IMG/VR virus record: IMGVR_UViG_3300044698_000251
Span: 822 to 64,821 of that record
Direction: 5' to 3' (one strand)
DNA length: 64,000 nt
Origin: a virus
Of the stretch, positions 3,966 to 32,235 are shown piece by piece; position 1 is the first letter of the stretch; each line of letters opens with the position of its first letter. The notes beneath the pieces are model-generated. The model saw only the letters and a list, made by a program, of their open reading frames with translations, ran no database searches and was not told where the DNA came from. The position numbers were made by a program, and so were the translations under genes.

Positions 3966-3998
3966 CCGGAACCCGCCAGCCGCAACACGCCCGACAAT
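3966..3998 (+). promoter_or_regulatory. Late-promoter-like motif (variant), probably leaderless for terL
   Basis: CCGGAACCCGC-N16-GACAAT-N6-ATG(4005). Confidence 0.55.
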
Positions 3999-4004
3999 CC
4001 GGCC

Positions 4005-5399
4005 ATGACCACCGAGGACAGGGCCCACGTCGCACAGCGCGCAGCCGCCGCGCTCGACGCCCTCCTCGCACCACGCTGGACACCGTTGCCCCACCAGATC
4101 CCACCACCAGGCAACTGGGGAGGCTGGGTACTTTTGGGAGGCCGAGGCAGCGGCAAGACGGACGCCTGCGCCGCCTACATCGACGCCCACATCAACGGCC
4201 CACCCTGCATCCCCGGCCCCGTCCCACACTGGATCGGCATCATCGCCCCCACCCTCGGCGACGCCGCCACCTCCTGCTACGCCGGCCCATCCGGGATCCG
4301 CGCACACAGCCCCGGCGCGAAACTCGTCAACGGCCCCGGCGGCCTCACCGTCCGCTGGCCCAACGGCTCCGAAGCGAAACTCTTCGGCGCCCACAGCCCC
4401 GAAGACGTCGAACGCCTCCGCTCCGGCGGTAACCGATGCGCCGTCTGGGGAGAGGAACTGGCAGCGTGGCGGCATCTAGACGACGCATGGGACCACATGC
4501 GCTTCGGCCTGCGGACCGGGCCGCGCCCGCACTGGATCGCGTCCACCACACCGAAGCCGAAGCCGCTCATCAAGCGCCTGGCGGCCGGTGAGGAGCGCAA
4601 CGTCGTGCTGACCACGGCCACGACGTACGACAACCCGCACCTTGAACAGCACATCCGCGACCAGCTGGAGGAGACGTACGGCGGCACGCAGCTCGGCCAG
4701 CAGGAGCTTCTCGGCCTCATCATGGACCAGGACGAGAACGCCCTCTGGACTCGGGCAATGCTCGACGCTTCCCGGGTGCGGCCGGCGGACGTGCCCGACT
4801 TGGCGCGGATCGCGGTCGGCGTCGACCCGTCCGGTGGTGCCGGCGAGCAGGGCATCGTTGTGGTGGGTAAGTCGGGGCTCATCACGCCGCTGCGCCTGGT
4901 GTCGGACGACGGTACGGTGCCGGGCCCGGTGCGGCCGGAGCATCACGGGTATGTCCTCGATGACCGGACGTGCAAGCTTCCGCCGGATGGCTGGGGGCGG
5001 CGGGCGGTGCAGGCGGCGATCGACTGGGGCGCCGATGAAATCGTGTGTGAGGTCAACTTCGGAGGGGCCATGGCCGTGGCCACGATTCGTACGGCGGCCG
5101 ATGCGTTGGGCGTGAACATCCCCATCCGTACCGTCACCGCTACCCGGGGCAAGGCGGTGCGTGCGCAGCCGGTTGCCGCACTCACCGCGCAGGGGCGTTG
5201 GCATATGGCCGGCGTGTTCCCCGAGTTGGAGGAGCAGCTCGTCACTTGGTATCCGGAGATCGGCTGGTCACCGGATCGACTCGACGGGATGGTATGGCCG
5301 GCGTGGCACTTGAAGTTGGTGCGTACGACGGCGGGTGGTCTGGGTTCGTTGGGTGGGGATCTGGCCAGAAAGCAGATTGTTGGCGGGCGGCTACGGTGA
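4005..5399 (+). CDS. terL: Terminase large subunit
   Basis: GGRGSGKT Walker A, WGEELAAW Walker B, TTTPKP coupling motif, VGVDP nuclease, DRLDGMVW. Confidence 0.95.
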   Translation: MTTEDRAHVAQRAAAALDALLAPRWTPLPHQIPPPGNWGGWVLLGGRGSGKTDACAAYIDAHINGPPCIPGPVPHWIGIIAPTLGDAATSCYAGPSGIRAHSPGAKLVNGPGGLTVRWPNGSEAKLFGAHSPEDVERLRSGGNRCAVWGEELAAWRHLDDAWDHMRFGLRTGPRPHWIASTTPKPKPLIKRLAAGEERNVVLTTATTYDNPHLEQHIRDQLEETYGGTQLGQQELLGLIMDQDENALWTRAMLDASRVRPADVPDLARIAVGVDPSGGAGEQGIVVVGKSGLITPLRLVSDDGTVPGPVRPEHHGYVLDDRTCKLPPDGWGRRAVQAAIDWGADEIVCEVNFGGAMAVATIRTAADALGVNIPIRTVTATRGKAVRAQPVAALTAQGRWHMAGVFPELEEQLVTWYPEIGWSPDRLDGMVWPAWHLKLVRTTAGGLGSLGGDLARKQIVGGRLR

Positions 5400-5845
5400 C
5401 GGGCATGAATCCGTGGTTGTTCCTGGTCCTGCTGCCCGCGATGGCGTTGACGACATACCGGTTGACCCGGTTGGTCGTGGCTGACACCTTCCCTCCGGCG
5501 TTGTGGCTGCGGGACCGTCTCGTCGGCGGCTGGCGTCCCCTCACCTCGAAGGAGTCGGAGAGTCACCCGCTTCCGGTCATGGAGGAGGGGCAGTCGGCCA
5601 CCGTGGCACGGCTCGGCGGTTTGACGGTGATCGACGGTCAGATGAACCGGTATGTGGAGCGGGCTCGTTGGGTGCCGCACTGGTTGGCGGATCTGTTGTC
5701 GTGCCCGTTCTGCGCTTCGGGGTGGATCGGTGCGGGGGTGGTAGCGGGTGCGTGGTTTGCCCCTGCTGGCGCGTCGGTGCCGGTGCTGTGCTGGTTCTCG
5801 GCGTGGGCGATCGGCGGACTGATCGCGGCGCAGGACTGGGCGTAA
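5396..5845 (+). CDS. DUF1360-like membrane protein
   Basis: YRLTRLVVAD, LLSCPFCASGW, hydrophobic ends; alternative ATG at 5405. Confidence 0.7.
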   Translation: MTGMNPWLFLVLLPAMALTTYRLTRLVVADTFPPALWLRDRLVGGWRPLTSKESESHPLPVMEEGQSATVARLGGLTVIDGQMNRYVERARWVPHWLADLLSCPFCASGWIGAGVVAGAWFAPAGASVPVLCWFSAWAIGGLIAAQDWA

Positions 5846-5921
5846 GTGGGCGCGTAGCATCGTGGGTGCAGGAGAGCGGGCCCGGTCGCTTTCTCGGAGA
5901 CCGGGCTCGGTGGATGGGTGG

Positions 5922-5960
5922 CTGAGGGCCGTTCGCGGTGGGCATCGCGGGCGGCCCTCA
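5922..5960 (+). terminator. GC-rich hairpin between DUF1360 gene and portal promoter
   Basis: TGAGGGCCG(5922-5930)...CGGCCCTCA(5952-5960); no U tract. Confidence 0.4.
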
Positions 5961-5967
5961 CTCATGC

Positions 5968-6000
5968 CCGGAATGATCTTCACTGTGCCGCTCCTACCCT
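5968..6000 (+). promoter_or_regulatory. Late-promoter-like motif upstream of portal
   Basis: CCGGAATGATC-N16-TACCCT, then GGGAG RBS and ATG 6034. Confidence 0.7.
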
Positions 6001-6033
6001 CCCTCGCAGACGGCGAGCAGGGAGCGAGCGCAC

Positions 6034-7806
6034 ATGGCCTGGTGGCATGCATTCAGTCGACGCGGCACCCCCACGCCCAAACCGCACACGCCCACACAAC
6101 CCAACGCACTCACCTCCGCCGCAGCCCCCGTCACCAGCCCCCGCACCGAACTCATCCGCAACACCGACGGCTGGCAAGAAGAAGCCTGGGGCTACCACGA
6201 GACGCTGGGCGAATTCCGGTACGCCGTCGACTGGGAAGCGAAGATGCTCTCCCGCGTCCGACTCTTCGCCGCCAAACTCGAACCCGGCGCCGACGAACCC
6301 GTACGCGCCGACGCCGGAACCGCCGTCGACCTCCTCACCAACATGGCCGGAGGCGTCGCCGGACAAGCCGTCATCATGGACGGCCTCGGCACCCAGCTGT
6401 CCGTACCCGGCGAGGGCTACGTCATCGTCGAAAACGTGAACGGCGTGGAGCGGTGGTCGGTGCGCTCCATCGACGAAGTCCGCGTCGCACGCGGCCGGTA
6501 CGAGGTGACCGACGAGAACGCCGTCAACGGCGCCAACATCTGGCGCCCCCTCGCACCCGACTCACTGAATCCGCTGCGCGTGTGGCGCCCGAACAAGCGC
6601 TACCACCACATCGCCGACAGCCCGGCCCGCGCGGCCCGCTCCACCATGCGCGAGCTGGAGCTCGTGAACCGGCACATCATCGCCCAGTACCTGTCGCGGC
6701 TCGCGTCGGCCGGGGTGGTGCTCTTCCCCGAGGAGATCACGTTCCCCGTTCGCGAGGAGTTCGCGGACGCCCCTGACCCGTTCATGGCCGAGTGGATCGA
6801 GATCGCATCCGAAGCCATCCGGACACCCGGTACAGCGGCAGGGATTGTCCCGCTCCCGATGAAGCTCCCGGGCGAGTGGATCGACAAGGTGAAGCACGTC
6901 GACTTCACCCTGAAGATCGACGAGAAGATCATCGAGAAGCGCGAGTCCGCCATCAAACGGCTCGCCTCCCAGCTGAACATCCCCGCCGAAATCCTCCTCG
7001 GCATGGGCGACGTTAATCATTGGGGGGCATGGCAACTGGAGGAGGGCGCCCTCAAAACCAACATCGCCCCCGAAGCCGAGCTGATCGCGCAGGCGCTTAC
7101 CACCGGCTACCTCCAGCCCCGGCTCCGGGCGTCCGGCGTCGAGGACTGGGCGAGCTGGGTCGTCTGGTACGACATGTCGGAACTCACCCTCCGCCCCGAC
7201 CGCTCCGACGACGCCATCGCCCTCTACGACCGGCTCGAACTCAACGGCACCGCACTGCGCCGCGAGACCGGCTTCGACGAGGCCGACAAGCCGACCAACG
7301 AGGAACTCAAGGAACAAGCCCTCAAGGTCATCATCCACACGCTGCCGTCCGGCGCCGGATCCGCCCTCACCGAACTCATCGGCGAACAGGTCACCATCGC
7401 CGCGACCGCGCCCATCGCCCCGGGCAAACAACCGGCGCCGGAGCCCCCACCGGAAGAGCGCACGCCACCCGATCCCGAAGCCGCCCGCGCAGTGACGGCA
7501 CAGGCCCGCGAAGACCGCATGGTCCGACAGTCCCGCGAACTACACGCCGTCAGGTTCACGGTCGGCCGGGCGCCGGATCTGCTGCACCCGGCCGGCTGTA
7601 CGCAGCACGCCTACAGCTGCCCGTTCACGCATGCCGTGGTGAAGCTCGACGCGCTGCCGCGCCCGGGGACGTCCGGGACGTACGAGGTGCGGCTCGACAC
7701 ATTCGGCCGTCTGGCGATCGGCCGGCTTGCCCCGCATCTGGATACGAGCGGGTTCCTGTCCACCTCTCCTCGGAGTTCCAATGGGTTCGCTCACAGCCGC
7801 GGCTGA
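6034..7806 (+). CDS. Portal protein
   Basis: Position after terminase; WQEEAWGY..GEFRY, VPGEGY, LGMGDVNHWGAWQ typical of actinophage portals. Confidence 0.85.
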   Translation: MAWWHAFSRRGTPTPKPHTPTQPNALTSAAAPVTSPRTELIRNTDGWQEEAWGYHETLGEFRYAVDWEAKMLSRVRLFAAKLEPGADEPVRADAGTAVDLLTNMAGGVAGQAVIMDGLGTQLSVPGEGYVIVENVNGVERWSVRSIDEVRVARGRYEVTDENAVNGANIWRPLAPDSLNPLRVWRPNKRYHHIADSPARAARSTMRELELVNRHIIAQYLSRLASAGVVLFPEEITFPVREEFADAPDPFMAEWIEIASEAIRTPGTAAGIVPLPMKLPGEWIDKVKHVDFTLKIDEKIIEKRESAIKRLASQLNIPAEILLGMGDVNHWGAWQLEEGALKTNIAPEAELIAQALTTGYLQPRLRASGVEDWASWVVWYDMSELTLRPDRSDDAIALYDRLELNGTALRRETGFDEADKPTNEELKEQALKVIIHTLPSGAGSALTELIGEQVTIAATAPIAPGKQPAPEPPPEERTPPDPEAARAVTAQAREDRMVRQSRELHAVRFTVGRAPDLLHPAGCTQHAYSCPFTHAVVKLDALPRPGTSGTYEVRLDTFGRLAIGRLAPHLDTSGFLSTSPRSSNGFAHSRG

Positions 7807-10800
7807 TGGCTCGCACATGTCTGGCGCGATGATCGCGTTGATGCCGACCGTGGAGGATGCGGCCCGGTTGGCGATCGAGGGCGGCGAGGCCGCGGATCAG
7901 CTGCACCTGACGCTGCGGTACCTCGGTGACGGCGCCAACTTCGACGAGGCCGCGCGTACCGCGATCGTCGACTCGGTGCGGATGCTGACGGAGGGCATGC
8001 CGCCGATCGTGTCGAAGATCTTCGGTGCGGCGCACTGGAACGGGGGCGGTGACGAGCCGTCGTGGGTGTGGTCCGTCGGCGACGATCCGGAGCGCGGCCC
8101 GTCGCTGGAGGCGGCGCACGGTATGGCGGAGGAGGCGCTACTGATGGCGCCCATGGATGTGGAAATTCCGGAGCCGCACACGCCGTTTGCCGCGCATATC
8201 TGTGCCGCGTACTCCGACGAGCTGGACCTCATCATCCCCATGGAGGAGCGGCTCGGCCCGGTCACTTTCGACCGAGTTCGGGTGGCGTTCGCCGGGGACC
8301 ACACCGACACCCCCCTTGGTGGGCCCGTCACGGCCGCAGCCGGGCCGCTGCGCCGTCGGCCCACCGAGTTGGAGCTCGCCTCCCGCGTCGACTTCGCGCA
8401 GATGGACAAGGCGTGGCATGAGGCCGTTGACGGCACGGTGGAGGCGTGGGCCAGCGTGCAGGAGGCGATGCGCGCCGAGGTCACCGCCAGCATCCAAGCC
8501 GCAGCTGAGGCCGACGACCTGGACCGGCTCGACGGCCTCGCCGTGGACACCGAGGACGGTTCCCGGCTCCTGATCGCCCGCATGATCGCCTACGCGCGGG
8601 AGGCAGGCGACGCACAGCAAGCTGAGGCCGAAGCCCAGGGCGTCACCGTCCCGGAGTGGTCGCTGGACGACGAGGCGCTCACTGCGGCTGCGATCCGTGA
8701 CCGGCTGCGGCAGGTCGGCCGTACTGTCGCGCGTGGCCTCGGGGTGGGACTGGTGCAGTCCGCGGTCCGGCAGGCGATGCGCGTGTGGGGCTCCGGTACG
8801 GCGCAGCAGGTGGCCGCGCAGGTGGATGAGCACCTTGCCGGGCTGTCGGGTGCGGCAGCTGAGGAGCAGGTCGGTGGGGCGATGAGCGTCGCGCAGAACG
8901 AGGGGCGCCTCGCGGTGCTCGCGGTCGCGCCGCCCGCCACGTACACAGCTTCGGAAATCTTGGACAAATCATCATGTAAGCCATGTCGTGACATCGACGG
9001 CACCGAGTACGACACCCTCACCGCGGCCCGCACCGCATACCCGTCCGGCGGCTACACGGGCTGCCTCGGCGGCTCGCGCTGCCGGGGCGCGTTGGTCACC
9101 GTGTGGCCGCAGGGCAGTGAGCAAGCCGCCGCCGGAATGATCTTGGCTGCGAGTGCGTCCACAATGCCGCCGACAAACCACGAAGGAGGCGGCGCCGTGC
9201 CGTACCGCATCGAGCAGGAGCACCCGGACTGCGGTGCCGACAAGCCGTACGCCGTGGTGAAAGAAGCCGACGGCGAGCTGATGGGCTGCCACGACAGCGA
9301 GGCCGCAGCCATGGAGCAGCAGGCCGCCCTGTACGCCGAGGAAGGCGACGACAAGCCCGCAGACGACGGCGACGACATGGACTATGCGGGCAAGACCGCC
9401 CCCTGGCGCGGTCCCCTCGCCATCGAAGGGCAAGTCACCGGCGACGGCCGCGAGTTCGCCCCCGACGCGCTCACCTGGGCCGAACTTCCCGTGCCGCTGC
9501 GATGGAACAAGGAAGACTCCCACGGCGGCGACCCGAAGACCGTAGCCGTCAACGTCGGCCGCATCGACAGCATCTGGCGCGACGGCAGCCTCATCATGGG
9601 CGAAGGCGTCCTCGACCTCTCCGACGACGACGGACGCAAGGTCCACGGCAAGATCCTCGGCAAGTTCCTCCGCGGCGTCAGCATCGACGCCGACTCCATC
9701 GCCGACGCCGACGTCGAATTCGTGTGGCCCGAAGACGCCAACGAGGGCACCGGAGACGGCGACGAGGGCGACCTGCTGGAGATGCTCTTCGCGCAGCCGG
9801 AGAAGATGATTTTCCACGGCGGACGCATCCGGGCCGCAACTCTCGTCGACATCCCCGCGTTCGCCGAGGCGTACATCGCACTCCTTGATGAGCAGGGGGC
9901 GGTGGTGGCCGGCGGCCAGCCGATCGGCGCCGAAGCGCTCCAGGCGCTGGCAGTGCAGGATCTGGGTGCGGTCGGCACCCACGACACGGCCACCTCCGAC
10001 GGGCCGTGGGACGTGGGCGTGAACGAGAAGCGCATCGACGGGCCGCTCACGCTGGCCAAGGCGCGGGCCGCATACGGCTGGTACGACGGCGGCGCGGTCG
10101 AGGACGGCGAACTGGCGAAGTCCGCGGCGAAGTTCCTCCACCACGAGATCAACGCCGACGGCACCGTGGGCCCGGCGAACTTGACCGCCTGCTCCTCTTC
10201 GATCGGTGCCTTGCACGGCGCCCGTGGTGGTACGTCCATTCCGGAGGCGGACCGGCGTGGCGTGTACGACCACGTTGCGGCGCATCTGCGGGACGCCGGG
10301 CGTGAGCCGGAGCCGTTCCGTTCCCTGCGTGCTGTCACCGCTGGCGCACCGGCCTCGCATCCGGCGATGACCGGCCTGTGGAAGCCGCCCGCCGAGTGGT
10401 TCAGTAACCCGGAGCTGCCGTTCTACTGCGGGATCGTTGTCACCGACCAGGGGCGCCTGTACGGGCATGCGGCACCGTGGGGGGCCTGCCACATCGGGTT
10501 CGACGGCGAGTGCGTCACTGTCCCGCGGGAGAACGAGCACTCGCACTACATGACCGGTGAGACGGTCTGTGACGACGGCTCGCGGGTGGCGGTCGGCCAG
10601 GTCACTGTCGGAACAGGGCATGCTCCGCTGCATTTTGGGGCGCAGCCTGCGGCGGAGCACTACGACAACACGGGCAGTGCGGTCGCTGATGTGGCGGTCG
10701 GCAACGACAAGCACGGCATCTGGATCGCGGGTGCGATCCGGCCGAACGCGGATCCGCTGAGCGTGTACGAGCTGCGGGCGTCGGGGCGGGTGTCGGGTGA

Positions 10801-11032
10801 CTGGCGGCGGATCGGCGGCCAGTTGCGGATGGTGGGGATGCTCGGCGTGAATGTGGCTGGGTTCCTGGAGGAGGCGAAGATGCGGACGCTGGTTTCTGCC
10901 GGGCGCCCGCAGGCGCTTGTGGCGGCTGGTGTTCCGAAGCAGCGGTGGGCGATGTCGAAGGACGAGTCGGAGCGTCAGGCGATGCGGATCGTGATGCGCA
11001 TGCTGTCCCGCCGCGTACACCCGGGGAGGTGA
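7781..11032 (+). CDS. 2H-phosphoesterase + MuF-like head morphogenesis + capsid maturation protease fusion (1083 aa)
   Basis: GGAG RBS; HLTLRYLG and FAAHICAAY (2H motifs); DKSSCKPC..CLGGSRCRG (MuF-like); EGQVTGDGREF, VSIDAD, ATLVDIPAF, SGDWRRIGG (protease region). Confidence 0.8.
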   Translation: MGSLTAAADGSHMSGAMIALMPTVEDAARLAIEGGEAADQLHLTLRYLGDGANFDEAARTAIVDSVRMLTEGMPPIVSKIFGAAHWNGGGDEPSWVWSVGDDPERGPSLEAAHGMAEEALLMAPMDVEIPEPHTPFAAHICAAYSDELDLIIPMEERLGPVTFDRVRVAFAGDHTDTPLGGPVTAAAGPLRRRPTELELASRVDFAQMDKAWHEAVDGTVEAWASVQEAMRAEVTASIQAAAEADDLDRLDGLAVDTEDGSRLLIARMIAYAREAGDAQQAEAEAQGVTVPEWSLDDEALTAAAIRDRLRQVGRTVARGLGVGLVQSAVRQAMRVWGSGTAQQVAAQVDEHLAGLSGAAAEEQVGGAMSVAQNEGRLAVLAVAPPATYTASEILDKSSCKPCRDIDGTEYDTLTAARTAYPSGGYTGCLGGSRCRGALVTVWPQGSEQAAAGMILAASASTMPPTNHEGGGAVPYRIEQEHPDCGADKPYAVVKEADGELMGCHDSEAAAMEQQAALYAEEGDDKPADDGDDMDYAGKTAPWRGPLAIEGQVTGDGREFAPDALTWAELPVPLRWNKEDSHGGDPKTVAVNVGRIDSIWRDGSLIMGEGVLDLSDDDGRKVHGKILGKFLRGVSIDADSIADADVEFVWPEDANEGTGDGDEGDLLEMLFAQPEKMIFHGGRIRAATLVDIPAFAEAYIALLDEQGAVVAGGQPIGAEALQALAVQDLGAVGTHDTATSDGPWDVGVNEKRIDGPLTLAKARAAYGWYDGGAVEDGELAKSAAKFLHHEINADGTVGPANLTACSSSIGALHGARGGTSIPEADRRGVYDHVAAHLRDAGREPEPFRSLRAVTAGAPASHPAMTGLWKPPAEWFSNPELPFYCGIVVTDQGRLYGHAAPWGACHIGFDGECVTVPRENEHSHYMTGETVCDDGSRVAVGQVTVGTGHAPLHFGAQPAAEHYDNTGSAVADVAVGNDKHGIWIAGAIRPNADPLSVYELRASGRVSGDWRRIGGQLRMVGMLGVNVAGFLEEAKMRTLVSAGRPQALVAAGVPKQRWAMSKDESERQAMRIVMRMLSRRVHPGR
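9132..9165 (+). promoter_or_regulatory. Intragenic late-promoter-like motif
   Basis: CCGGAATGATC-N17-CACAAT, then AAGGAGG RBS and in-frame GTG at 9197. Confidence 0.6.
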
Positions 11033-11038
11033 GAGCGA

Positions 11039-11101
11039 ATGTGCAGTTGCAATAAGAGGCGTCGTCCGGCACCCCCGCCGCCGCCCCCTCCAAGTCTCTG
11101 A
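11039..11101 (+). CDS. 20-aa Cys/Arg/Pro-rich micropeptide MCSCNKRRRPAPPPPPPPSL
   Basis: Strong GGAGGT RBS (11025-11030), ATG 11039, TGA 11099-11101; below ORF-track cutoff. Confidence 0.55.
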   Translation: MCSCNKRRRPAPPPPPPPSL

Positions 11102-11115
11102 CCTTTAGTTATGCG

Positions 11116-11167
11116 GTCCGGCCAACCTAATTGGACGTTGGCCGGACTGTGTGCTATGCGCTAGCCT
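11116..11167 (+). promoter_or_regulatory. Housekeeping-sigma-like promoter for capsid genes overlapped by an 11-bp inverted repeat
   Basis: TTGGCC(11138)-N18-TAGCCT(11162); GTCCGGCCAAC(11116-11126)/GTTGGCCGGAC(11137-11147). Confidence 0.5.
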
Positions 11168-11224
11168 TCGCAAACAAAGGGCGCCAAACCGCAAGGCGCA
11201 CACCCCTTCACAGCGGAGGACTCA

Positions 11225-12976
11225 GTGCCCGAGGAACTCTTCAGCGCCCCGTCCGACCTCACCCTCGTCAGCGACAGCGACCTCGCCGAACTCGAAACAC
11301 GCGGCGCAGCAGAGTTCGCCCGCATCGAACAGAACGACGTCGACCCCCAGTCCCTCGCCTACGCGACGACTCTCGCCGACGACCTCGACGCCATCCGCGC
11401 CGAACTCAAGGTCCGCGAAGTCCGCGCCCAGGCGAACTCCGACCTCCAGCGCACCCGCGTCGGCGAGAAGCTCGCCGCACTCAGGGAACGCGTCAACGGC
11501 ACCGACGGCCAGGGTGCGGCCAGCACCCAGACCGCAGCCCCCGTCGACACAGACGCCATCGCCGCCGCCGCCGCACAGGGCGTCGCCGCCGAGTTCGTCA
11601 AGATCTTCACCAGCGGGCGAGGCGGCAACGGCCTCGGCGCCGTCGCCAAGCGCGCCACCGCCTCCCTCGCCGAGACCGCGCAGCACGCGCCCGCGCCGAA
11701 GGTCCCCAACGCCAAGCTCGCCGTCACCGCCTCCGTGGACATCCCCGGCGTCGCCCACGGCGGGGAACTCCCCACCCTGCGCGCCCTCGCCGACGTCGTG
11801 TCCCGCAAGGCGAAGTCCATGCCGGTCACGCAGAACAACCCCAACCACCAGCTCGTCGCCAGCATTCGCAACGACTTCGGGCACACCATCGACGACCGCA
11901 CCAGCCCGGCGCAGGTCCGCGACCTCATCGACTTCCTCACCGGCCCCGACAAGCAGCAGGCGCTGGTGGCCGGCGGCGGATGGTGCGCCCCCTCCGAGAT
12001 CCGCTACGACTTCTTCAACATCGCCTGCGAAGACGGCATGATCGACCTCCCCACGTTCGGCGTGAGCAGGGGCGGCATCCAGTTCCCCGTCTCCCCGAGC
12101 CTCGCCGACGCCCTCGGCGGCGGCACCGCCTTCGCCGAATTCGCCGCCACCCTCTCCAACACCTCAACGCCGTTCCTGTGGACCGAAGCCGACGACATCG
12201 CCGCCGCCACCGGCTCCCCGACGAAGCCGTGCATCCGCGTGCCCTGCCCGGACTTCGACGAAGAGCGCCTGGAGTGCTACGGCTACTGCCTCACCGCGGG
12301 CAACTTGACCGACGACGCCTACCCCGAGGCCACGCAGCACATGCTGCAACTCCTCATGTCGGCGCACTCGCACGTCATCAACGCCCGCCTCATCGCGCTG
12401 ATGCTGCTTGGCTCCAGCGCCACCACCACCATCGGCGGCCAGACCGACGACTCCGCCGCACCCCGCATCTACAACGCGGTCGGCATGGCGGCCACCGACT
12501 ACCGCGCCAGGTTCGGTATGTGCATCGACGACGTCCTCGAAGTCGTCCTGCCGTACTGGGTCCGCGAAGTCATCCGCGCCGACCTCGCATGGAAGGCGGG
12601 CGTCGAACTGCCTGCCGTCTCCAACGCGGAGGTCGACTCGTACTTCGTGGCCCGCAACGTGCGCGTCCAGTGGGTCAACGACTGGCAGGTCCGCGGAGCG
12701 AGCCAGTTCGGCAACGCCACCCCCATGACCGCATGGCCGACCACCGTGGACTTCCTCATCTACGCGGCCGGCACGTTCATCCACGGCAACGGCCTCTCTC
12801 TCGACCTCGGCGTGATCCGCGACTCGGTTCTCAACGAGACCAACGACCACACCGCCGCCTGGTCCGAGGAATGCCACCTTGTCGCCCGCGTCGGCCACGA
12901 GTCCCGCCGCTACACCGTGCCGTTCAACGTCAAGGGCAGCACCGGCGCGATCCTCGGCGACGAAGCCCGCGTCTGA
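11225..12976 (+). CDS. Major capsid protein (hexamer-type, with N-terminal scaffold-like region)
   Basis: Coiled-coil N-terminus; ALVAGGGWCAPSE.RYDF, PTFGVSRGGI, LDLGVIRDSVLN.TND motifs of actinophage capsids. Confidence 0.9.
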   Translation: MPEELFSAPSDLTLVSDSDLAELETRGAAEFARIEQNDVDPQSLAYATTLADDLDAIRAELKVREVRAQANSDLQRTRVGEKLAALRERVNGTDGQGAASTQTAAPVDTDAIAAAAAQGVAAEFVKIFTSGRGGNGLGAVAKRATASLAETAQHAPAPKVPNAKLAVTASVDIPGVAHGGELPTLRALADVVSRKAKSMPVTQNNPNHQLVASIRNDFGHTIDDRTSPAQVRDLIDFLTGPDKQQALVAGGGWCAPSEIRYDFFNIACEDGMIDLPTFGVSRGGIQFPVSPSLADALGGGTAFAEFAATLSNTSTPFLWTEADDIAAATGSPTKPCIRVPCPDFDEERLECYGYCLTAGNLTDDAYPEATQHMLQLLMSAHSHVINARLIALMLLGSSATTTIGGQTDDSAAPRIYNAVGMAATDYRARFGMCIDDVLEVVLPYWVREVIRADLAWKAGVELPAVSNAEVDSYFVARNVRVQWVNDWQVRGASQFGNATPMTAWPTTVDFLIYAAGTFIHGNGLSLDLGVIRDSVLNETNDHTAAWSEECHLVARVGHESRRYTVPFNVKGSTGAILGDEARV

Positions 12977-13018
12977 TCCCGACCGGTGTACGAGCGAGCA
13001 GGAAAGAGGTGAGCGACG

Positions 13019-13900
13019 ATGGCCGGAGCACGCCAGATCATCGCACCGCCGACGTTCACCGCCCTGCCGTACGGGCTGTGGGACTCGATTCAGCACCCGG
13101 CGCCTCCGCCGCACTGGCAGCAGGGTGTCACCTGGATCGAGCACTGCCCCACCGCGGACACGACGTACGACGAATGCCTCGCCGTCACCGGCACCGGCGG
13201 CGCACCGCCCGAACCGCCGGCCAAGACCGGCAACGTCGAGCAGACGTTCCGGGGCGCTACCCCGTTCACGGTGTACGCCGAGTTCGAATGCTCCCCGGTG
13301 GGCGTGGCCGAGGCAGGTTCGGTTGCCGGGGATGCGCTGGCCCGGGTGGAGCAGCAGCAGGTGGAGACGGCGTTCTGGACGGGCACCGCCGGCGGCCAGC
13401 CGGTGGTGTTCCCGCACCTGGCGGCGGACACCGAGGTGCTGGACTCGCAGGACATTGTGCTTCAGCCCGTCGCGTCCCCGGCGGTGACGGGCGCCGATGT
13501 GGCGCACGCGCTCGGCGAACTGGAGCAGGACCTCGCCGCCTGCTACGCCGGACAGGGCCTCATCCACGTACCCCGCATCGCTTTGCCGACTCTCGCCGCG
13601 GCCTACCTGGTTGTCGAGCGGGATGGGCGGCTGTACACCCCGGCCGGTAATCAGATCGTGGTCGGCGGCGGCTACACCGGCAGCGGCCCCGACGGTGCTG
13701 CCCCGGCCGCCGGAACGACGTGGATTTACGCGACCGGTGCCGCGTTCGGCTACCGCGGTGACGTGTTCCTCACGGAGCTCCGTGACTCGCTGGACCGGTC
13801 CGCGAACACCATCCGCATGATCGCCGAGCGCACCTACGTGCTCGGCCACGAGTGCTGCCTGCTGGCTGCGCACATCGTCCTGGGCGTGCCCACCGAGTAG
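13019..13900 (+). CDS. Second capsid protein (putative major capsid pentamer protein)
   Basis: Directly follows MCP; PYGL, HWQQGVTW, PFTVYA, GLIHVP, AERTYV; arrangement matches Rosebush-type hexamer/pentamer pairs. Confidence 0.65.
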   Translation: MAGARQIIAPPTFTALPYGLWDSIQHPAPPPHWQQGVTWIEHCPTADTTYDECLAVTGTGGAPPEPPAKTGNVEQTFRGATPFTVYAEFECSPVGVAEAGSVAGDALARVEQQQVETAFWTGTAGGQPVVFPHLAADTEVLDSQDIVLQPVASPAVTGADVAHALGELEQDLAACYAGQGLIHVPRIALPTLAAAYLVVERDGRLYTPAGNQIVVGGGYTGSGPDGAAPAAGTTWIYATGAAFGYRGDVFLTELRDSLDRSANTIRMIAERTYVLGHECCLLAAHIVLGVPTE

Positions 13901-13912
13901 GAGAAGAACACC

Positions 13913-14590
13913 ATGGCTGCTACTTCTACGTGCGCAACCCCCATCAAGGGCACGCACCTGCGGATCATCGCTCTTGACGCCTGCGGCGTACCGGTCACCG
14001 GCGATTCTGGGCTGGTCGCCGTAACGTCCGGGTTCGTACAGGTCGAGATGGAACCCGACTACGAGGACGGTGAGGAGTTCTTCGAGCGCACCGCCAGCGG
14101 CGCGGCATGCGTGAACCAGAAAGACGACCCCACCCTCAAGCGCATGGGCCTGACCGTGCAGATGTGTGAGGTCAACGTCTCCGCGATCTCCTACATCATC
14201 AGCGCACGCGAACTGACGACCGGTACGCCGACGACAGGCACCGGCTTCGCGGTCGCCGAGGGCAACCCGACGAACCGGTTCAGCATGGAGGTGTGGCAGG
14301 AGGTCGCCGGGTCCGGGGCGTGCGACGCGTCGGGGAATCAGCGGTACATCTACCACGCGTGGCCGAACGTGGGTGCCACCCAGATCGGCTCGTACACCAT
14401 CGAGAACGGCCGCTCCACGTTCGAGTTCACCTCGGAAACCCGCGGCGCTTCGGCAACGTGGGACACGCTCGTCGGCGAGGACTTCCTCCCGGCCGGGGAG
14501 AGCGTCGACATCGACGAGCATTGGGTGTGGAACGTGACCACGGCCACGCCGCCCACAGTGGCGTGTGACCCGACCACGCTCGCCGCATAA
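13913..14590 (+). CDS. Major tail (tube) protein
   Basis: IKGTHLRIIALDACG, GEEFFERTASGAAC, TIENG..TF; position in the morphogenesis operon. Confidence 0.75.
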   Translation: MAATSTCATPIKGTHLRIIALDACGVPVTGDSGLVAVTSGFVQVEMEPDYEDGEEFFERTASGAACVNQKDDPTLKRMGLTVQMCEVNVSAISYIISARELTTGTPTTGTGFAVAEGNPTNRFSMEVWQEVAGSGACDASGNQRYIYHAWPNVGATQIGSYTIENGRSTFEFTSETRGASATWDTLVGEDFLPAGESVDIDEHWVWNVTTATPPTVACDPTTLAA

Positions 14591-14608
14591 CCCAGCAGCG
14601 GAGCACTG

Positions 14609-16246: not shown

Positions 16247-16257
16247 GGGACCCCACC

Positions 16258-17094
16258 ATGCCGGTCATCAATCCAACTCCTCAGACCACGCCGGGTGGTG
16301 CCGGCGACATCACCGGGCCGTGCGCAGACTGGCCCGTCACCTGGACCTGCGACCTCGACACACTGAACCCGGCCGTGACCGGGATCGCCGTCTCTATGGC
16401 CACGGAGACTCTGTGGGCGTTGACGGGTATGCGGTTCGGTGTCTGCCAGGTGACGCTCCGCCCGTGCGCCCGCGACTGCCAGACCGGTTCGTTCTACGAC
16501 GACTTCGGGCCGCCGTGGGCGTCGGGCTCCTATCCGCAGCCCGCGCTGATCGGGGGGCTTTGGTACAACCTGACGTGCGGTTCCTGCGCGGGCGACTGTT
16601 CGTGCACCGAAGTGTCTGAGGTGCGGCTGCCGGCCCCGGTGAACACGATCGTCGAGGTGCTGATCGACGGCACGCCGATGGTGTCGGGCGCGTACCGCAT
16701 CGACAACAACCGGCTGTTGGTGCGCACAGACGGGCAGCGCTGGCCGCGCTGCAATGACTTGAACCTGGACGACACCGAAGTGGGTACCTGGTCGGTGACG
16801 GCGACGTACGGGGAGTCGCTGCCGGAGGGCGCGTCGCTGGCGGTGGGCCAGTTGGCGTGCGAGATCGCGAAGGCTGCGGATGGCGGGGACTGCAAGTTGC
16901 CGGCCGGATTGCAGCAGCTCGTACGCCAGGGGGTGACGATCTCGTATCCGGATGTGGGTGAGCTGTTCCGGCAGGGGCGGACGGGCCTGTATCTGGTGGA
17001 CATGTTCGTGGCGACGTGGAATCCGTACGGGCTGAGACAACGCTCGCGGGTGTACAGCGTGGACCGGCCGACGGTACGTAGAGCGGGGACCTGA
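16258..17094 (+). CDS. Head-to-tail adaptor
   Basis: ATETLWALTGMRFG.C.VTLRPC, QQLVRQGVTI, GRTGLYLVD..V..WNP. Confidence 0.7.
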   Translation: MPVINPTPQTTPGGAGDITGPCADWPVTWTCDLDTLNPAVTGIAVSMATETLWALTGMRFGVCQVTLRPCARDCQTGSFYDDFGPPWASGSYPQPALIGGLWYNLTCGSCAGDCSCTEVSEVRLPAPVNTIVEVLIDGTPMVSGAYRIDNNRLLVRTDGQRWPRCNDLNLDDTEVGTWSVTATYGESLPEGASLAVGQLACEIAKAADGGDCKLPAGLQQLVRQGVTISYPDVGELFRQGRTGLYLVDMFVATWNPYGLRQRSRVYSVDRPTVRRAGT

Positions 17095-18007: not shown

Positions 18008-18040
18008 CCGGAATGATCATGCGCGGGCGGTACCTACCGT
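18008..18040 (+). promoter_or_regulatory. Late-promoter-like motif, leaderless for tail assembly chaperone
   Basis: CCGGAATGATC-N16-TACCGT-N7-ATG(18048); no RBS. Confidence 0.75.
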
Positions 18041-18047
18041 CCACCCC

Positions 18048-18497
18048 ATGACCGACATCGCCGCCACCCCAACACCCATCATGGACTTCACCGAGGAACA
18101 CCAGCGCGTCCTCTTCCGCATCGACGACGACGTCTTCGAAGCCGCACGCGCCCTCCCCGGGAAAACCCTCGCCCGCTTCGCATCCCGCTTCGCCAACGTG
18201 GAGAAAGCCGGCCACGAGGAGCAGATCAACGCGATTGGCGACGCCCTCGGCCTAGTCCTCCTGCCCGACTCCAACGCCCGCTTCCAGAAACGGCTGGAAG
18301 ACCTCGAAAACCCCATCGGCCTGGAGCAGGCCGGACGCATCATCGAGTGGCTTATGGAGCAGTACGGCCACCGCCCTACCGAGCCGTCCTCGGACTCGTC
18401 CACTGGGCCAGCCAGCCCGGTATCTGGCACGAGCTCGACGGACGCGCAGCCGCAGCCGGTATCGATCCCGGCGACCTTCCAGCCGACCGCTTCCTGA
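18048..18497 (+). CDS. Tail assembly chaperone
   Basis: Immediately upstream of tape measure; ends ..YGHRPTEPSS.. Confidence 0.75.
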   Translation: MTDIAATPTPIMDFTEEHQRVLFRIDDDVFEAARALPGKTLARFASRFANVEKAGHEEQINAIGDALGLVLLPDSNARFQKRLEDLENPIGLEQAGRIIEWLMEQYGHRPTEPSSDSSTGPASPVSGTSSTDAQPQPVSIPATFQPTAS

Positions 18498-25551: not shown

Positions 25552-25584
25552 CCGGAACGATCATGTCCGGGGGGTGCCTACCGT
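25552..25584 (+). promoter_or_regulatory. Late-promoter-like motif, leaderless
   Basis: CCGGAACGATC-N16-TACCGT-N7-ATG(25592). Confidence 0.75.
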
Positions 25585-25591
25585 CCCCTCC

Positions 25592-25945
25592 ATGGCCCAA
25601 CTCCTGACAGCCGCAGCCCGCGCACGGGCCAGAGTCAACCACGGCAGGTGGATCGCCGACTGCCCGCGCCCCTACTGCGCCAACGCCGTCAAACTCGGCC
25701 CCCGCCAGGGCACATTCCACTGCGCGGGCGAAGGCGGCTGCCAGATGATCGCCGAGATTGAATGGCCCGGCGACGCCGACGGCATCTGGCAGGCACTGCT
25801 GGAGCGCCCGGTGCCCACCACCAGGAACTGGTACCCGCCCGAGCATGACGAGGCGGTGCGCCTCGGAATCCCCCACGGGCAGACACCGGCCGACCTGCGC
25901 GCGGAACACCGCGAGCACGATGAAGCCGCCGGGCTGGTGGGGTAG
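25592..25945 (+). CDS. Cys-rich hypothetical protein
   Basis: NHGRWIADCPRPYCANA, FHC..GGC, RNWYP. Confidence 0.65.
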   Translation: MAQLLTAAARARARVNHGRWIADCPRPYCANAVKLGPRQGTFHCAGEGGCQMIAEIEWPGDADGIWQALLERPVPTTRNWYPPEHDEAVRLGIPHGQTPADLRAEHREHDEAAGLVG

Positions 25946-28194: not shown

Positions 28195-28464
28195 ATGGAT
28201 TTCGGTGAAGCGCTCAGCGCACTCAAGGACGGAGCCCGCGTGACCCGGGCCGGATGGAACGGTCAGGGCATGTTCGTGGTGCACCAGAAGGGCTATCCGG
28301 ACGGCATCCCGATCAACGCCAACACGGCCGAAGCGACGGGCATCCCGCAGGGAACGGTGTGCCGGTTCCGGCCGTACCTGATGATGAAGACGGTGGACGA
28401 CGAGTTCGTCCCCTGGGTCATCAGTCAGACCGACGCGCTCGCCGAGGACTGGGAGCGCGTCTGA
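28195..28464 (+). CDS. DUF2829 (Tad2-like) protein
   Basis: GGAGG RBS; MDFGEAL.ALK.G.RV.R.GWNG.GMF, PYLMMKT, VPW..SQTD.LAEDW. Confidence 0.85.
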   Translation: MDFGEALSALKDGARVTRAGWNGQGMFVVHQKGYPDGIPINANTAEATGIPQGTVCRFRPYLMMKTVDDEFVPWVISQTDALAEDWERV

Positions 28465-29576: not shown

Positions 29577-29869
29577 GCAGTCCCTTGGACGGACGGATCC
29601 GCTCCATCGCCCGCGAGGAAGCCACCGCTCTCCTCGGCGTCCCCGGCGGGGTGCAGTCGGTGGCCGGTTCGGCGCCGACTGCGGAGCAGCTGCAAGAGCA
29701 GATCACCTACCTGCACGAACACCTGCACCTGGCGGCTACCAAGCTCAGCAACGCGGAGGAGCGCATCCGTGCGCTGGAGAAGGCGGCCGGGCATGCGGAG
29801 TCGGAGGAGCGGCCGACGGCACGGCGGACGCCCCGCAAGACGGATAGGGGTGCACCCGCTCCGGAATGA
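29573..29869 (+). CDS. Coiled-coil hypothetical protein
   Basis: ATGA coupling; heptad LQEQITYLHEHL..AEERIRALE. Confidence 0.6.
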   Translation: MSSPLDGRIRSIAREEATALLGVPGGVQSVAGSAPTAEQLQEQITYLHEHLHLAATKLSNAEERIRALEKAAGHAESEERPTARRTPRKTDRGAPAPE

Positions 29870-29893
29870 TCTACGCCGGGCGGCTCTTACCGT
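29861..29893 (+). promoter_or_regulatory. Late-promoter-like motif, leaderless for glycosyltransferase
   Basis: CCGGAATGATC-N16-TACCGT-N7-GTG(29901). Confidence 0.75.
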
Positions 29894-29900
29894 CCGGCCC

Positions 29901-30947
29901 GTGAAGACCCTCGTGTACCCGTCAGATTCCTTCGGCTGCGGCTCGTTCAGGGCGATCTGGCCTGGCGGACTCCTCGCTGCCGCCGGGCATGACGTGGAGG
30001 TGGTGCGCCAGAAGGACCGGCGCGTCCGCCTCGTGATGGAAGGCAACGCGGTCAAGGACGTCCTCGTCGACGCCGACGTCGTCGTACTCCAGCGGGTCAC
30101 GCACGCCTATATGGCGCAGGCTGTCGGTGTGATGCGGGCGAAGGGCGTCACGGTGGTTGTCGACGTGGATGATGATCTGTCGTCGATTCATCCGTCGAAT
30201 CCGGCGTGGGCTGTGCACCGGCCGGGCGCCGGGCTGCATTCGTGGCACAACCTGGCGCTCGCCTGCCGGGAGGCGTCGCTGGTGACGGTGTCGACCCCGG
30301 CGCTGCTGGACGTGTACGCCCGTCACGGGCGCGGGCATGTGCTGCCGAACTATCTGCCGGACCAGTACTACGGGCTGCCGCGTACGGACTCCGACGTGAT
30401 CGGCTGGCCGGGCTCAATCCACTCGCATCCGAATGATCCGGAGGTGGTGGGCGGGGCGGTCGCCCGGCTCGTAGATGAGGGCGCCGAATTCGTGATGCGC
30501 GGTGACTCGACGGGCGCCGGGCGGGCGTTCGGGCTGGCTGCGGATCCGGCGGGTGGCGGGGTGCCGATCGAGGAGTGGCCGCAGTCGGTGGCCTCGTTGG
30601 GGATCGGGATTGCCCCGCTTGCGGACACGAAGTTCAACAGGTCGAAATCGCATTTGAAGCCGCTGGAGATGTCAGCCTGCGGTGTGCCGTGGGTGGCGTC
30701 GCCGCGTGCGGAGTACCGGCGGCTGCATGTGATGGGTGCGGGTGTTCTCGCTGACCGGCCGCGTACGTGGTATCGGGAGTTGAAGCGGCTGCGGGAGTCG
30801 GCTGCGCTGCGGGCGGAGTTGTCGGAGGCGGGGCGTGCGGTGGCCGAGCAGCTCCGGCTACGGGATCACGCCTGGCGTTGGGCCGATGCCTGGCAGCGGG
30901 CGTACGAGATGCAGCAGGCTACGCCGCGCACGGCGGTCCCGGCGTAG
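29901..30947 (+). CDS. Glycosyltransferase, GT-B fold (family 4-like)
   Basis: DVVVLQR, VVVDVDDDL, VTVSTPAL, VLPNY, IGIAPL....FN.SKS.LKPLEMSACGVPWVAS. Confidence 0.85.
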   Translation: MKTLVYPSDSFGCGSFRAIWPGGLLAAAGHDVEVVRQKDRRVRLVMEGNAVKDVLVDADVVVLQRVTHAYMAQAVGVMRAKGVTVVVDVDDDLSSIHPSNPAWAVHRPGAGLHSWHNLALACREASLVTVSTPALLDVYARHGRGHVLPNYLPDQYYGLPRTDSDVIGWPGSIHSHPNDPEVVGGAVARLVDEGAEFVMRGDSTGAGRAFGLAADPAGGGVPIEEWPQSVASLGIGIAPLADTKFNRSKSHLKPLEMSACGVPWVASPRAEYRRLHVMGAGVLADRPRTWYRELKRLRESAALRAELSEAGRAVAEQLRLRDHAWRWADAWQRAYEMQQATPRTAVPA

Positions 30948-30961
30948 CCAACGCAGGGCTA

Positions 30962-31204
30962 CTACTGGTCGGCGATCGACACGCCAGAGAGGAAGTTGCC
31001 CTGCGGGATGACGCCGTCCGGGACCTCCAGGGTGAGGCGGACTTCGGAGCCGTCCGGAGAAACCTCAGCGTCTACGATCTTGCAGTTGTCGATCCGCTGC
31101 CCGTCTGCCTTCAGCGGGACCGTCTTGCCGATCTGACTGTCGAAGCAGCCGGGCGCGAACTGGCTGTGGGCCGGGGCCTGCTGAGCGATCTGCACAGTTT
31201 CCAT
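30962..31204 (-). CDS. Hypothetical protein
   Basis: GGGAG RBS, 80 aa. Confidence 0.6.
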   Translation of the reverse strand: METVQIAQQAPAHSQFAPGCFDSQIGKTVPLKADGQRIDNCKIVDAEVSPDGSEVRLTLEVPDGVIPQGNFLSGVSIADQ

Positions 31205-31243
31205 TGCTGACTCTCCCGTTGATGAATGGCCTGTCGGGTACGA

Positions 31244-31657
31244 CTATGCCGCACTCGCCGGTAGCGGTGTGGCCGCAATCGGTTCCTCGCGCACGTCACG
31301 GATCCACGAGATTCCACACGCGATGCACAGTTCGTGCGGGTCGTCGTACACGAGGGACGTGGCCAGACACAGCGGGCACTTCGCCCGCGTCCGCACCCGC
31401 TTCAACTGCCCCCGCTGATACGTGGTCGTGCCACCCCAGTAGCCCTCCGCACCGTGGAGCATCGCCCACGCCAGGCACTTCGTACGGACCGGGCAGGTGC
31501 GGCACCACTGCTGCGCGATGTTGACGCCTTCGTCGGTCTCCTTGTCGGGCACGAAGTCGAAGCCGCTACTGACGCAGGGAGCGCCCGCCTGCCACTCGGT
31601 TCCTTCGGCGCTGACCGGGGTGAGGATCTTCTTCTCGATCACAGCTTCCCCGTCCAT
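31244..31657 (-). CDS. WhiB-family Fe-S transcription factor with C-terminal zinc ribbon
   Basis: APC...CRTCPVRTKC, GYWGG; C-terminal CPLC...CIACG. Confidence 0.82.
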   Translation of the reverse strand: MDGEAVIEKKILTPVSAEGTEWQAGAPCVSSGFDFVPDKETDEGVNIAQQWCRTCPVRTKCLAWAMLHGAEGYWGGTTTYQRGQLKRVRTRAKCPLCLATSLVYDDPHELCIACGISWIRDVREEPIAATPLPASAA

Positions 31658-31872
31658 GCGGGATCTCCGCGCCCGGACCGTGTGCAGGCTGGGCAGATGC
31701 CGCGCCAAAGACCCGGCCTGTCTGGGTCGGGAATCGCGGAAGGCTTCCCGTCACGGTCCTTCCACTCATGGCCGCCGGTGAATCTGCCGCACAACGTGCA
31801 CGGCAGCCAGAAGTATCCGAACGCGCCTGCGTACCAGCGGTGCAGGAACCGGGGCAGCACACTGATCTTCAC
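31639..31872 (-). CDS. Small Cys-rich hypothetical protein
   Basis: GYFWLPCTLCG...GICPAC. Confidence 0.55.
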   Translation of the reverse strand: MKISVLPRFLHRWYAGAFGYFWLPCTLCGRFTGGHEWKDRDGKPSAIPDPDRPGLWRGICPACTRSGRGDPAWTGKL

Positions 31873-31882
31873 GGCTCGCTCC

Positions 31883-32134
31883 TCAGGGGCACGGGGTGCC
31901 GTCGTTGACGGACCACACGATCACGCCGCGCTCCTCGTCGAGGCACCGCTCGACCCGGCCAGCCCGGCGCAGGCGTCCGAGGGCGAGGGCGACGAGGTCG
32001 GTGGTGAGGCCGGTCTGCTCGGCGAGCTGGCCGCGCGAGCGTGAGCCCTGGGCGAGGAGTTCGTAAAGCTGTTCGTCGCGGGCGATGGTTTCTGGGGAGC
32101 GGGGGCGTCCTCTACGGGGTGCGGTCTGCTGCAT
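31883..32134 (-). CDS. Winged helix-turn-helix DNA-binding protein
   Basis: RGRPRS basic hook; LYELL..SRGQLAEQTGLTTDLVALALGRLRRAGRV. Confidence 0.7.
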   Translation of the reverse strand: MQQTAPRRGRPRSPETIARDEQLYELLAQGSRSRGQLAEQTGLTTDLVALALGRLRRAGRVERCLDEERGVIVWSVNDGTPCP

Positions 32135-32202
32135 GATCTGCTCACATTCATTTCGGCGAGCGACTGAATACCATTATGCAGAAGGGTGCAAGTCAGCCGT
32201 GG

Positions 32203-32235
32203 CCGGAATGTGCCAGACAGCCCGCATGTGACACT
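32203..32235 (+). promoter_or_regulatory. Late-promoter-like motif
   Basis: CCGGAATGTGC-N16-GACACT upstream of GGAGG-ATG 32283. Confidence 0.6.

Follow-up and report, generated by a model that had tools for sequence, protein, structure and literature searches.

The stretch of DNA analysed here (the window, 64,000 nucleotides, ~69% G+C) comprises bases 822-64821 of the 70,945-bp IMG/VR virus record IMGVR_UViG_3300044698_000251, estimated by CheckV to be 79% complete, and its late genes carry a repeated 11-mer, CCGGAAYGATC (the box), followed at fixed spacing by a hexamer that resembles a -10 element. Genes were mapped with a codon-score gene caller (106 predicted proteins) together with PHROGs and Pfam (Table 1). 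A nucleotide near-identity search against isolate phages returned no match, and the nearest isolate phages by capsid protein are 30-34% identical. Capsid relatives are encoded at 153 metagenome loci, of which 80 were retained, with capsids 57-85% identical; for comparison the related loci (1.06 Mb) were oriented with the capsid gene on the + strand. Prophages of the family are present in Streptomyces species and in one Nocardioidaceae metagenome-assembled genome, and complete relatives, recognised by their terminal repeats, measure 67-79 kb. Among the hosts of such prophages are Streptomyces caniscabiei NE06-02D (at ~240-266 kb of NZ_JABXWI010000010.1) and Streptomyces sp. 549. When the 106 proteins were compared with nine whole relatives by tblastn, the late half proved conserved and the early half highly mosaic. 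The phage is a temperate member of a Streptomyces-type actinomycete siphophage lineage with well over a hundred uncultured relatives.

Table 1. Genes, candidate regulators and predicted promoter sites of the window (window positions; aa, amino acids; nt, nucleotides).
Feature	Position	Strand	Details	Basis
Sugar-activation and glycosyltransferase operon	ahead of terminase gene	+		PHROGs/Pfam map
Predicted half-box promoter, large terminase gene	3966..4007	+	CCGGAA 3966-3971, GACAAT 3993-3998, ATG 4005; 6-nt gap, predicted leaderless	
Large terminase	starts 4005	+		PHROGs
Hairpin, terminator-like	5915..5962	+	a few bases 5' of portal box; 17 pairs, -32.8 kcal/mol, z = -4.3	
Predicted full-box promoter, portal gene	5968..6036	+	box 5968-5978, TACCCT 5995-6000, ATG 6034; 33-nt leader with GGGAG	
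Portal	starts 6034	+		PHROGs
Head-protein fusion, 1083 aa	7781-11032	+		PHROGs/Pfam map
Predicted full-box promoter within head-protein fusion gene	9132..9199	+	box 9132-9142, CACAAT 9160-9165 (N17)	
Major capsid protein	starts 11225	+	tail genes after	PHROGs/Pfam map
Predicted full-box promoter, gene preceding tape measure	18008..18050	+	box 18008-18018, TACCGT 18035-18040, ATG 18048; 7-nt gap, predicted leaderless	
Tape measure	starts 18727		minor tail proteins downstream	PHROGs/Pfam map
Predicted full-box promoter, minor-tail-region gene	25552..25594	+	box 25552-25562, TACCGT 25579-25584, ATG 25592; 7-nt gap	
Amidase	starts 28464			PHROGs/Pfam map
Predicted full-box promoter, glycosyltransferase-like gene	29861..29903	+	box 29861-29871, TACCGT 29888-29893, GTG 29901	
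Glycosyltransferase-like gene	29901-30947	+	Glyco_trans_1_2 match below cutoff	Pfam
Candidate reader 1, WhiB-family protein, 137 aa	31244..31657	-	Whib match, E = 9e-11	Pfam
Candidate reader 2, winged helix-turn-helix protein, 83 aa	31883..32134	-		alignment and model
Predicted half-box promoter, divergent region beside regulator genes	32203..32285	+	CCGGAA 32203-32208, GACACT 32230-32235, GGAGG, ATG 32283	
Integrase	32845-33735		phage temperate	Pfam
Immunity-type pair (125-aa gene and HTH_31 gene)	34287-35198		adjoins integrase	Pfam
Mosaic early region	beyond integrase		includes two longer WhiB genes	
Long WhiB fusion genes	43898-44590 and 44587-45180		WhiB domain plus ~110-145 extra residues	

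Five exact copies of CCGGAAYGATC lie in the window (5968, 9132, 18008, 25552 and 29861), all on the + strand, against 0.14 expected from shuffled sequence, and none of 100 shuffles reached five; the whole 70.9-kb record holds no further copy. An earlier reading of the letters (the sequence-only reading) had described a seven-copy motif restricted to the late region, and all seven sites are indeed present on the + strand where it placed them, with the hexamers and spacings it gave: TACCCT or TACCGT at N16 for 5968, 18008, 25552 and 29861, CACAAT at N17 for 9132, and N16 for the other two. Its start-codon distances likewise hold, at 7 nt past the hexamer for ATG 18048, ATG 25592 and GTG 29901 and 6 nt for ATG 4005, and so does its expectation that the motif would exceed a shuffled background. 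The sites at 3966 and 32203 are degenerate, with three and two mismatches respectively, and as two-mismatch box matches number 62 against 48 expected, these two are indistinguishable from chance by the box alone; they keep only CCGGAA and the hexamer (the half box), and it is conservation in relatives that establishes them as real. Restriction to the late region is true of the full box and fails for the half box at 32203, which stands just beyond that region beside regulator genes. The general pattern CCGGA[AC]-N21-.A[CAT]..T occurs nine times on the + strand of the record and never on the - strand, compared to 1.7 in shuffles, with seven of the nine intergenic; one of the nine is a new site outside the window at record position 398, 7 nt 5' of the start of a sugar nucleotidyltransferase gene, the first of the glycosylation operon.

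We found that the motif recurs in related genomes with the same geometry. Across the related loci, all of the roughly 109 occurrences of the 11-mer fall on the gene strand, and a.A...T hexamer follows at N16 or N17 in 106 of 108 copies. Two site classes are apparent, one with N16 and TACCGT or TACCCT and one with N17 and (C/A)CACAAT (34 non-redundant copies of the latter). The extended box reads CCGGAAYGATC(T/A)T and is nearly invariant, there being just five one-mismatch sites with a hexamer, whose substitutions fall on the first C or on the Y. Among 178 non-redundant sites, 169 carry.A...T at N16 or N17, most commonly as TACCGT, which agrees with the proposal that the hexamer is a -10 of the principal-sigma-like TANNNT type. 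An open reading frame of at least 60 codons begins 6-8 nt past the hexamer at 82 of these sites (at exactly 7 nt for 68), and the remainder are of the portal type, with a leader and ribosome-binding site, or of the internal head-gene type. Three positions are conserved: 5' of the portal gene, within the head fusion gene, and 5' of the gene that precedes the tape measure. Complete relatives carry 4-6 copies each in the late half, nearly all on one strand (G001 has one opposite-strand 10-mer match). Relaxed matching of the box was rejected as a source of extra promoters, the two-mismatch excess on the gene strand being mostly a conserved stretch of capsid-gene coding sequence.

Because of this strand bias, the fixed hexamer spacing, the positional conservation and the leaderless start-codon distances, and also because a consensus scan of the late region 3500-19000 (15.5 kb) found no sigma-70 promoter and a hairpin lies just 5' of the portal box, we conclude that the motif is very probably a promoter class of the phage family. 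With the start codon as +1, the box CCGGAAYGATC(T/A)T would occupy ~-40 to -28, i.e. the -35 position, followed by a TANNNT-type -10 that is usually TACCGT at 16 nt or else CACAAT at 17 nt, and a start codon, often placed 6-7 nt past the hexamer, would yield a leaderless mRNA; a putatively weaker sub-class would retain only CCGGAA, 21 nt from the hexamer. We give little credence to the alternative that the motif acts on RNA or translation, like the start-associated sequences of cluster K mycobacteriophages, or marks processing sites in one long late transcript. Several sites do abut the preceding gene with no terminator between, and the distance from motif to start codon is fixed, but the motif has neither a Shine-Dalgarno sequence nor a conserved fold, stands 30-35 nt ahead of a normal ribosome-binding site at the portal and internal head-gene sites, and is built in two parts, the TANNNT hexamer being spaced as in a promoter, which this alternative leaves unexplained.

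The individual sites differ in how far they are conserved. Ahead of the terminase gene, CCGGA(A)-N21-(G/C)ACAAT-N6-ATG is kept in ~20 relatives. At the portal gene, inverted repeats comparable to the terminator-like hairpin were seen by eye at the same place in several relatives. A further proposal, that the portal leader forms a conserved 5' hairpin masking the ribosome-binding site, found no support, with RNAalifold giving no consensus and 72.6% of cells paired versus 70.6% in shuffles (87 of 500 shuffles reach the value). The box within the head fusion gene precedes a strong GAAGGAGG ribosome-binding site and then an in-frame GTG at 9197, and the head-gene frame remains open across 9132-9199 in 6/6 close genomes, so that the gene is likely, as read from its sequence, to yield both the full-length head protein and a separately transcribed 611-aa C-terminal protein, in the manner of nested scaffold and protease genes. 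The position at 18008 is the most widely conserved, being present even at ~60% capsid identity.

For the minor-tail-region gene, ATG 25592 (leaderless) is probably the likelier start than the gene caller's GTG 25574, because GTG 25574 falls in the promoter spacer and the N-terminus shared with relatives begins at 25592 (the homologous sites in G006 and G017 have an identical ATG and N-terminus). Sites homologous to 29861 occur in G001 and G005. Within the box at 29861, the TGA at 29867-29869 also terminates the preceding 98-aa gene, and promoter and coding sequence therefore overlap there. At the half box beside the regulator genes, CCGGAA-N21-(C/A/G)ACACT is kept in four of five close relatives compared, irrespective of the downstream gene, and the fifth, G006, has CAGACT at N22. 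More distant relatives, at ~60% capsid identity (L148, L159, L164-L166, L170 and L172), have no box 5' of the portal gene and instead show a conserved (G)CTACAGT -10-like element following a hairpin; most of them retain the box, exact or with one mismatch, at the tape-measure-proximal gene, L166 having only a degenerate variant.

We then considered which polymerase and which factors could read such promoters. The upstream box is not TTGACA, in agreement with the sequence-only reading: at 16-18 nt from the hexamer the full box offers only ATGATC (3/6 matches, 16 nt), and half-box sites offer nothing similar. Ordinary constitutive principal-sigma promoters, in which the box would be an unusual -35 or upstream element kept by descent and read by no dedicated factor, could account for the TANNNT-type -10 and for the TGA that ATGATC and TTGACA have in common at a 16-nt spacer, and many actinobacterial promoters have no recognisable -35. 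We nevertheless regard this explanation as quite improbable, as the 11-mer is invariant across capsids 57-85% identical while spacer and flanks vary freely, which points to a specific reader; a phage free to tune its promoters to that sigma would be expected to come closer to TTGACA, and the conserved CCGGAA sits upstream of the -35 hexamer position. Control by methylation via GATC or CCGG was also considered and rejected, the phage methylase gene not being conserved in relatives.

The distribution of the motif bears on whether the host alone could read it. In IMG/VR, 92 of the 95 loci with the full pattern belong to the phage family and the other three are single matches in low-GC contigs, and the pattern was not found in 297 of 300 further Streptomyces genomes, the other three having one match each (two of these in mobile elements). 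A host regulon is disfavoured because the full pattern is so nearly private to the phage family. This applies in particular to a host alternative sigma factor, for example of the extracytoplasmic function (ECF) type reading GGAAT or GGAAC, or to another host factor acting with no phage protein. The box does contain GGAAY, the usual ECF -35 core, the common hexamer contains CGT, and no phage sigma would be needed. ECF promoters, however, have the form GGAAC-N16-19-CGT/GTT, and the GGAAT-CGT separation here is 23 nt, a spacing on which we rejected the ECF-type reading; furthermore, the half-box and N17 classes have no CGT, and a host regulon that includes the sigma factor's own promoter should have been visible in the Streptomyces genomes. 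We consider a host factor of this kind improbable.

The half-box sites are informative about the role of the box. Because they keep only CCGGAA and the hexamer at N21, the invariant core, judged by this conservation, is CCGGAA together with its fixed 21-nt distance to the hexamer, and half-box sites form a real sub-class of putatively weaker promoters. An activator is favoured over a repressor because CCGGAA keeps the exact N21 where the rest of the box is lost and because those promoters are poor. Under the repressor alternative, the main rival, the box would be an operator, at which a phage protein, possibly the winged-helix protein itself, covers the late -35s in the lysogen and host polymerase alone reads the promoters afterwards, as with the stoperators of cluster A mycobacteriophages. 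Several features suit an operator: the site is asymmetric, 13 bp, multi-copy, in a single orientation and nearly invariant; the phage carries an integrase (32845-33735) and is temperate; one half box falls within the divergent region that would control the regulator itself; and most of the folds closest to the winged-helix protein belong to MarR/ArsR-type repressors. We still find it unlikely. An exact distance of 21 nt from CCGGAA to the -10 that survives loss of the rest of the box is expected for polymerase contact and unneeded by a repressor. Half-box promoters, in which nothing resembles a -35 and the -10 has lost its first T, look too weak to fire unaided, a separate immunity-type pair (34287-35198) adjoins the integrase, and both conserved regulator genes persist in relatives where no homologues of this phage's integrase or immunity genes were found.

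Among the record's proteins scanned, Pfam matched neither a sigma factor nor an RNA polymerase, nor any family of MotA or AsiA homologues, and a WhiA-like protein was not found. That the whole motif is read by an unrecognised sigma-like factor or polymerase of the phage is the least probable explanation we considered: genes may be missing from the record (79% by CheckV) and a good many of the early ones belong to no known family, but no large unknown non-structural protein is common to this phage and the complete relatives (67-79 kb), and a two-part layout is typical of sigma-70-family holoenzymes and not of single-subunit polymerases.

Only two regulators were present in 9/9 whole relatives by tblastn, the WhiB-family protein encoded at 31244-31657 and the 83-aa protein encoded at 31883-32134, whose genes are adjacent in close relatives. 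The sequence-only reading had offered three WhiB proteins as candidate readers. Its short WhiB remains a candidate by this conservation, whereas the two long WhiBs (43898-45180) fare poorly, matching whole relatives at 29-44% identity, often partially, and having no match in G011, G013 and G014; the list also omitted the neighbouring winged-helix gene, which is equally conserved. The long WhiB fusion proteins (43898-44590 and 44587-45180), singly or together, have clear WhiB domains and ~110-145 extra residues that could bind DNA, but they are weakly conserved or undetected in relatives with an identical box, and we think it very unlikely that they are the readers.

Alignment of the short WhiB family shows invariant C27, C51, C54 and C60, GYWGG and an RVRTRAKC stretch, followed at the C-terminus by a C4 zinc ribbon and a conserved PLP..AA tail, with no AT-hook on the Wbl (WhiB-like) protein itself; a profile of the family matches the structures of WhiB1 and Streptomyces WhiB. 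In the 83-aa family an AT-hook-like R-(R)-G-R-P-R near the N-terminus is invariant and is followed by a winged helix-turn-helix, and the model of this protein (predicted local distance difference test, pLDDT, 88) has the order helix-helix-helix-wing, with MarR/ArsR-type winged helices as the nearest folds. The winged-helix protein is putatively a more obvious sequence-specific DNA binder than the WhiB. A complex prediction for the two proteins scored 0.01, which counts neither for nor against binding. In L230, a 16.5-kb early-region fragment of a different, probably lytic lineage, an RGRPR winged-helix homologue (8485-8808) is followed ~3 kb downstream by a WhiB with the same C4 zinc ribbon (12016-12498), and this recurrence of the pair, seen at the level of sequence, supports a functional partnership. 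Glycosylation genes lie near the winged-helix/WhiB pair in L230 too.

Upstream of the pair in the window, GAATACCATTATGCAG is conserved on the + strand at 32135-32202, and the - strand reads CTGCATAATGGTATTC with a CATAAT -10. This CATAAT lies ~38 nt 5' of the winged-helix gene start. A leftward CATAAT-type promoter likely drives the regulator pair, as its sequence suggests, and autoregulation of the pair is possible because the half box, on the opposite strand, is only 24 nt further out.

Wbl proteins, three phage ones included, bind sigma-A region 4 (PMC13013590), and Streptomyces WhiB bridges RNA polymerase to WhiA, whose helix-turn-helix reads an asymmetric motif beside a non-canonical -35 (PMC10243135). 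In the model that we favour, host RNA polymerase with its principal sigma (HrdB type) would read the -10 while one or more phage proteins read the box and replace the normal -35 contact. The winged-helix protein (31883-32134) would read CCGGAA and place its AT-hook-like arm on GATC(T/A)T, the AT-rich portion of the box, and the WhiB-zinc-ribbon protein (31244-31657) would link the complex to sigma region 4, as in WhiA/WhiB or in MotA/AsiA of phage T4. Box promoters would in this way turn on several transcription units, made up of virion, tail, lysis-end and glycosylation genes. The claims within this model differ in strength. On the pattern of conservation, we judge the chances slightly better than even that these are a dedicated phage-activated class that combines host principal sigma with one or more phage proteins at the box; that the WhiB/winged-helix pair specifically are the readers is a tentative assignment that falls somewhat short of even; and the full picture, a two-part phage 'sigma appropriation' module that fires 5-8 mostly leaderless late promoters and has satellites, with these promoters ahead of a packaging-type HTH gene and a tape-measure-like gene of their own, switched on by the helper phage, is more doubtful again. 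The sequence-only reading had already proposed a phage factor acting with host sigma at a promoter; the promoter part is borne out by strand bias, spacing, conservation and leaderless geometry, and the rest is the best model, which we infer.

Several observations weigh against this model. Co-occurrence of the regulator genes with the box is confounded by the common descent of the phage family. The distant relatives keep both regulator genes but only one box site, their portal gene using a box-less CTACAGT-type -10; the single site they retain carries the same box. A sequence-specific protein over the -35 could equally be a repressor, and the xTGAxx of the box, at 16 nt from the -10, may provide a sigma region 4 contact with no phage factor. 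Finally, the AlphaFold model of the short WhiB is of low confidence (mean pLDDT 52) and permits no inference about the zinc ribbon or DNA contact.

The box also occurs outside the family prophages. Small integrated elements that carry it are found in three of five Streptomyces genomes with a family prophage (L224, L225 and L226, at G025:C89, G024:C82 and G023:C17, respectively), and the same element type is found in two genomes in which no winged-helix gene or family prophage was detected (L228, G047:C1; L229, G189:C361). Each encodes an integrase of the tyrosine or serine type and a helicase (DnaB or DUF3987), after which a box promoter stands ahead of an HTH_17 gene with a predicted leaderless ATG and a product of 264-298 aa. 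A tape-measure-like protein of 900-1200 aa, sharing 45-49% identity with the tape measures of the family, follows behind a second box promoter in L224 and L225 and is also encoded by L228 and L229, where a single full box was seen; L226 reaches the contig end soon after its first site. The elements yielded neither of the two candidate regulator genes. By their gene content the elements look like satellites borrowing a helper's late promoter, and box promoters in elements that have no regulator genes fit recognition of the box in trans.

Ahead of the terminase gene lie a sugar nucleotidyltransferase (record 398-1097), an epimerase/dehydratase, three glycosyltransferase genes of GT2 or GT-like type and a methyltransferase (window 276-3962), and a GT1-like gene (29901-30947) follows the lysis genes. 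Both groups are conserved in 9/9 relatives. Because both are headed by box promoters, half-box or full-box, this arrangement suggests that virion glycosylation may be co-regulated with the late genes. Two further genes were noted on the record. A Tad2-like (Thoeris anti-defence 2) domain protein is encoded at 28195-28461, directly 5' of the amidase (Pfam E = 2e-25), and a 586-aa FtsK/SpoIIIE-family protein is encoded near the record's right end, outside the window (L179:2682-4439; record 66681-68438).

A literature search found no paper with the motif (the string matched only unrelated primers) or one in which a phage WhiB activates late genes. Actinobacteriophages encode few regulators more often than WhiB-like proteins, yet little has been established about what these do for the phage, and the papers found show only sigma-A region 4 binding by some phage WhiBs (PMC13013590). 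The present comparison ties a sharply defined promoter class to one conserved WhiB subfamily and its small DNA-binding neighbour. If the two do act as the proposed sigma appropriation module, this would be the first defined role, as far as we found, for one of the very common phage WhiBs. The box itself marks late transcription units in an uncultured lineage, corrects gene starts and flags probable satellites, and it could supply Streptomyces engineering with tightly controlled promoters that depend on a phage factor.

Phages with an activator box in place of the -35 of their late or middle promoters are already known. As in T4 middle promoters, a phage-specific box would replace the -35 while the principal-sigma -10 is kept, with many copies per genome in one temporal class, and, as we propose here, a small protein bound to sigma region 4 would work with a sequence-specific DNA binder. 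Unlike MotA and AsiA, the candidates here are an iron-sulfur WhiB and an AT-hook/winged-helix protein, a temperate phage of an actinomycete is involved, and many transcripts are predicted to be leaderless. Ogr of P2, Delta of P4 and C of Mu are small phage activators for several late promoters that have no good -35, and satellites carry the same promoters and respond to the helper. Their proteins are unrelated to those proposed here, and their binding sites are laid out differently, those of P2 being dyads centred near -55. Cluster A stoperators and cluster K start-associated sequences are likewise short asymmetric motifs found in one orientation at gene boundaries. Our 13-bp asymmetric site resembles stoperators in its many copies and single orientation; stoperators, however, have no -10 at fixed spacing and occur in both genome arms, whereas here a -10 stands at fixed spacing and only late-type genes are marked. 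Start-associated sequences include a ribosome-binding site, whereas the motif here has promoter geometry. The closest host parallels are WhiA/WhiB at sepX (PMC10243135) and the WhiB7 regulon, in each of which a Wbl on sigma-A region 4 and a helix-turn-helix module act at a short asymmetric motif beside a non-canonical -35. In WhiB7 an AT-hook on the Wbl reads the adjacent minor groove, whereas here RGRPR is found on the separate 83-aa partner. The phage system would differ from WhiA/WhiB in having an 83-aa winged helix as the partner, CCGGAAYGATC and not GACAC as the motif, a Wbl with an extra C4 zinc ribbon, phage-borne genes, and virion genes as its targets.

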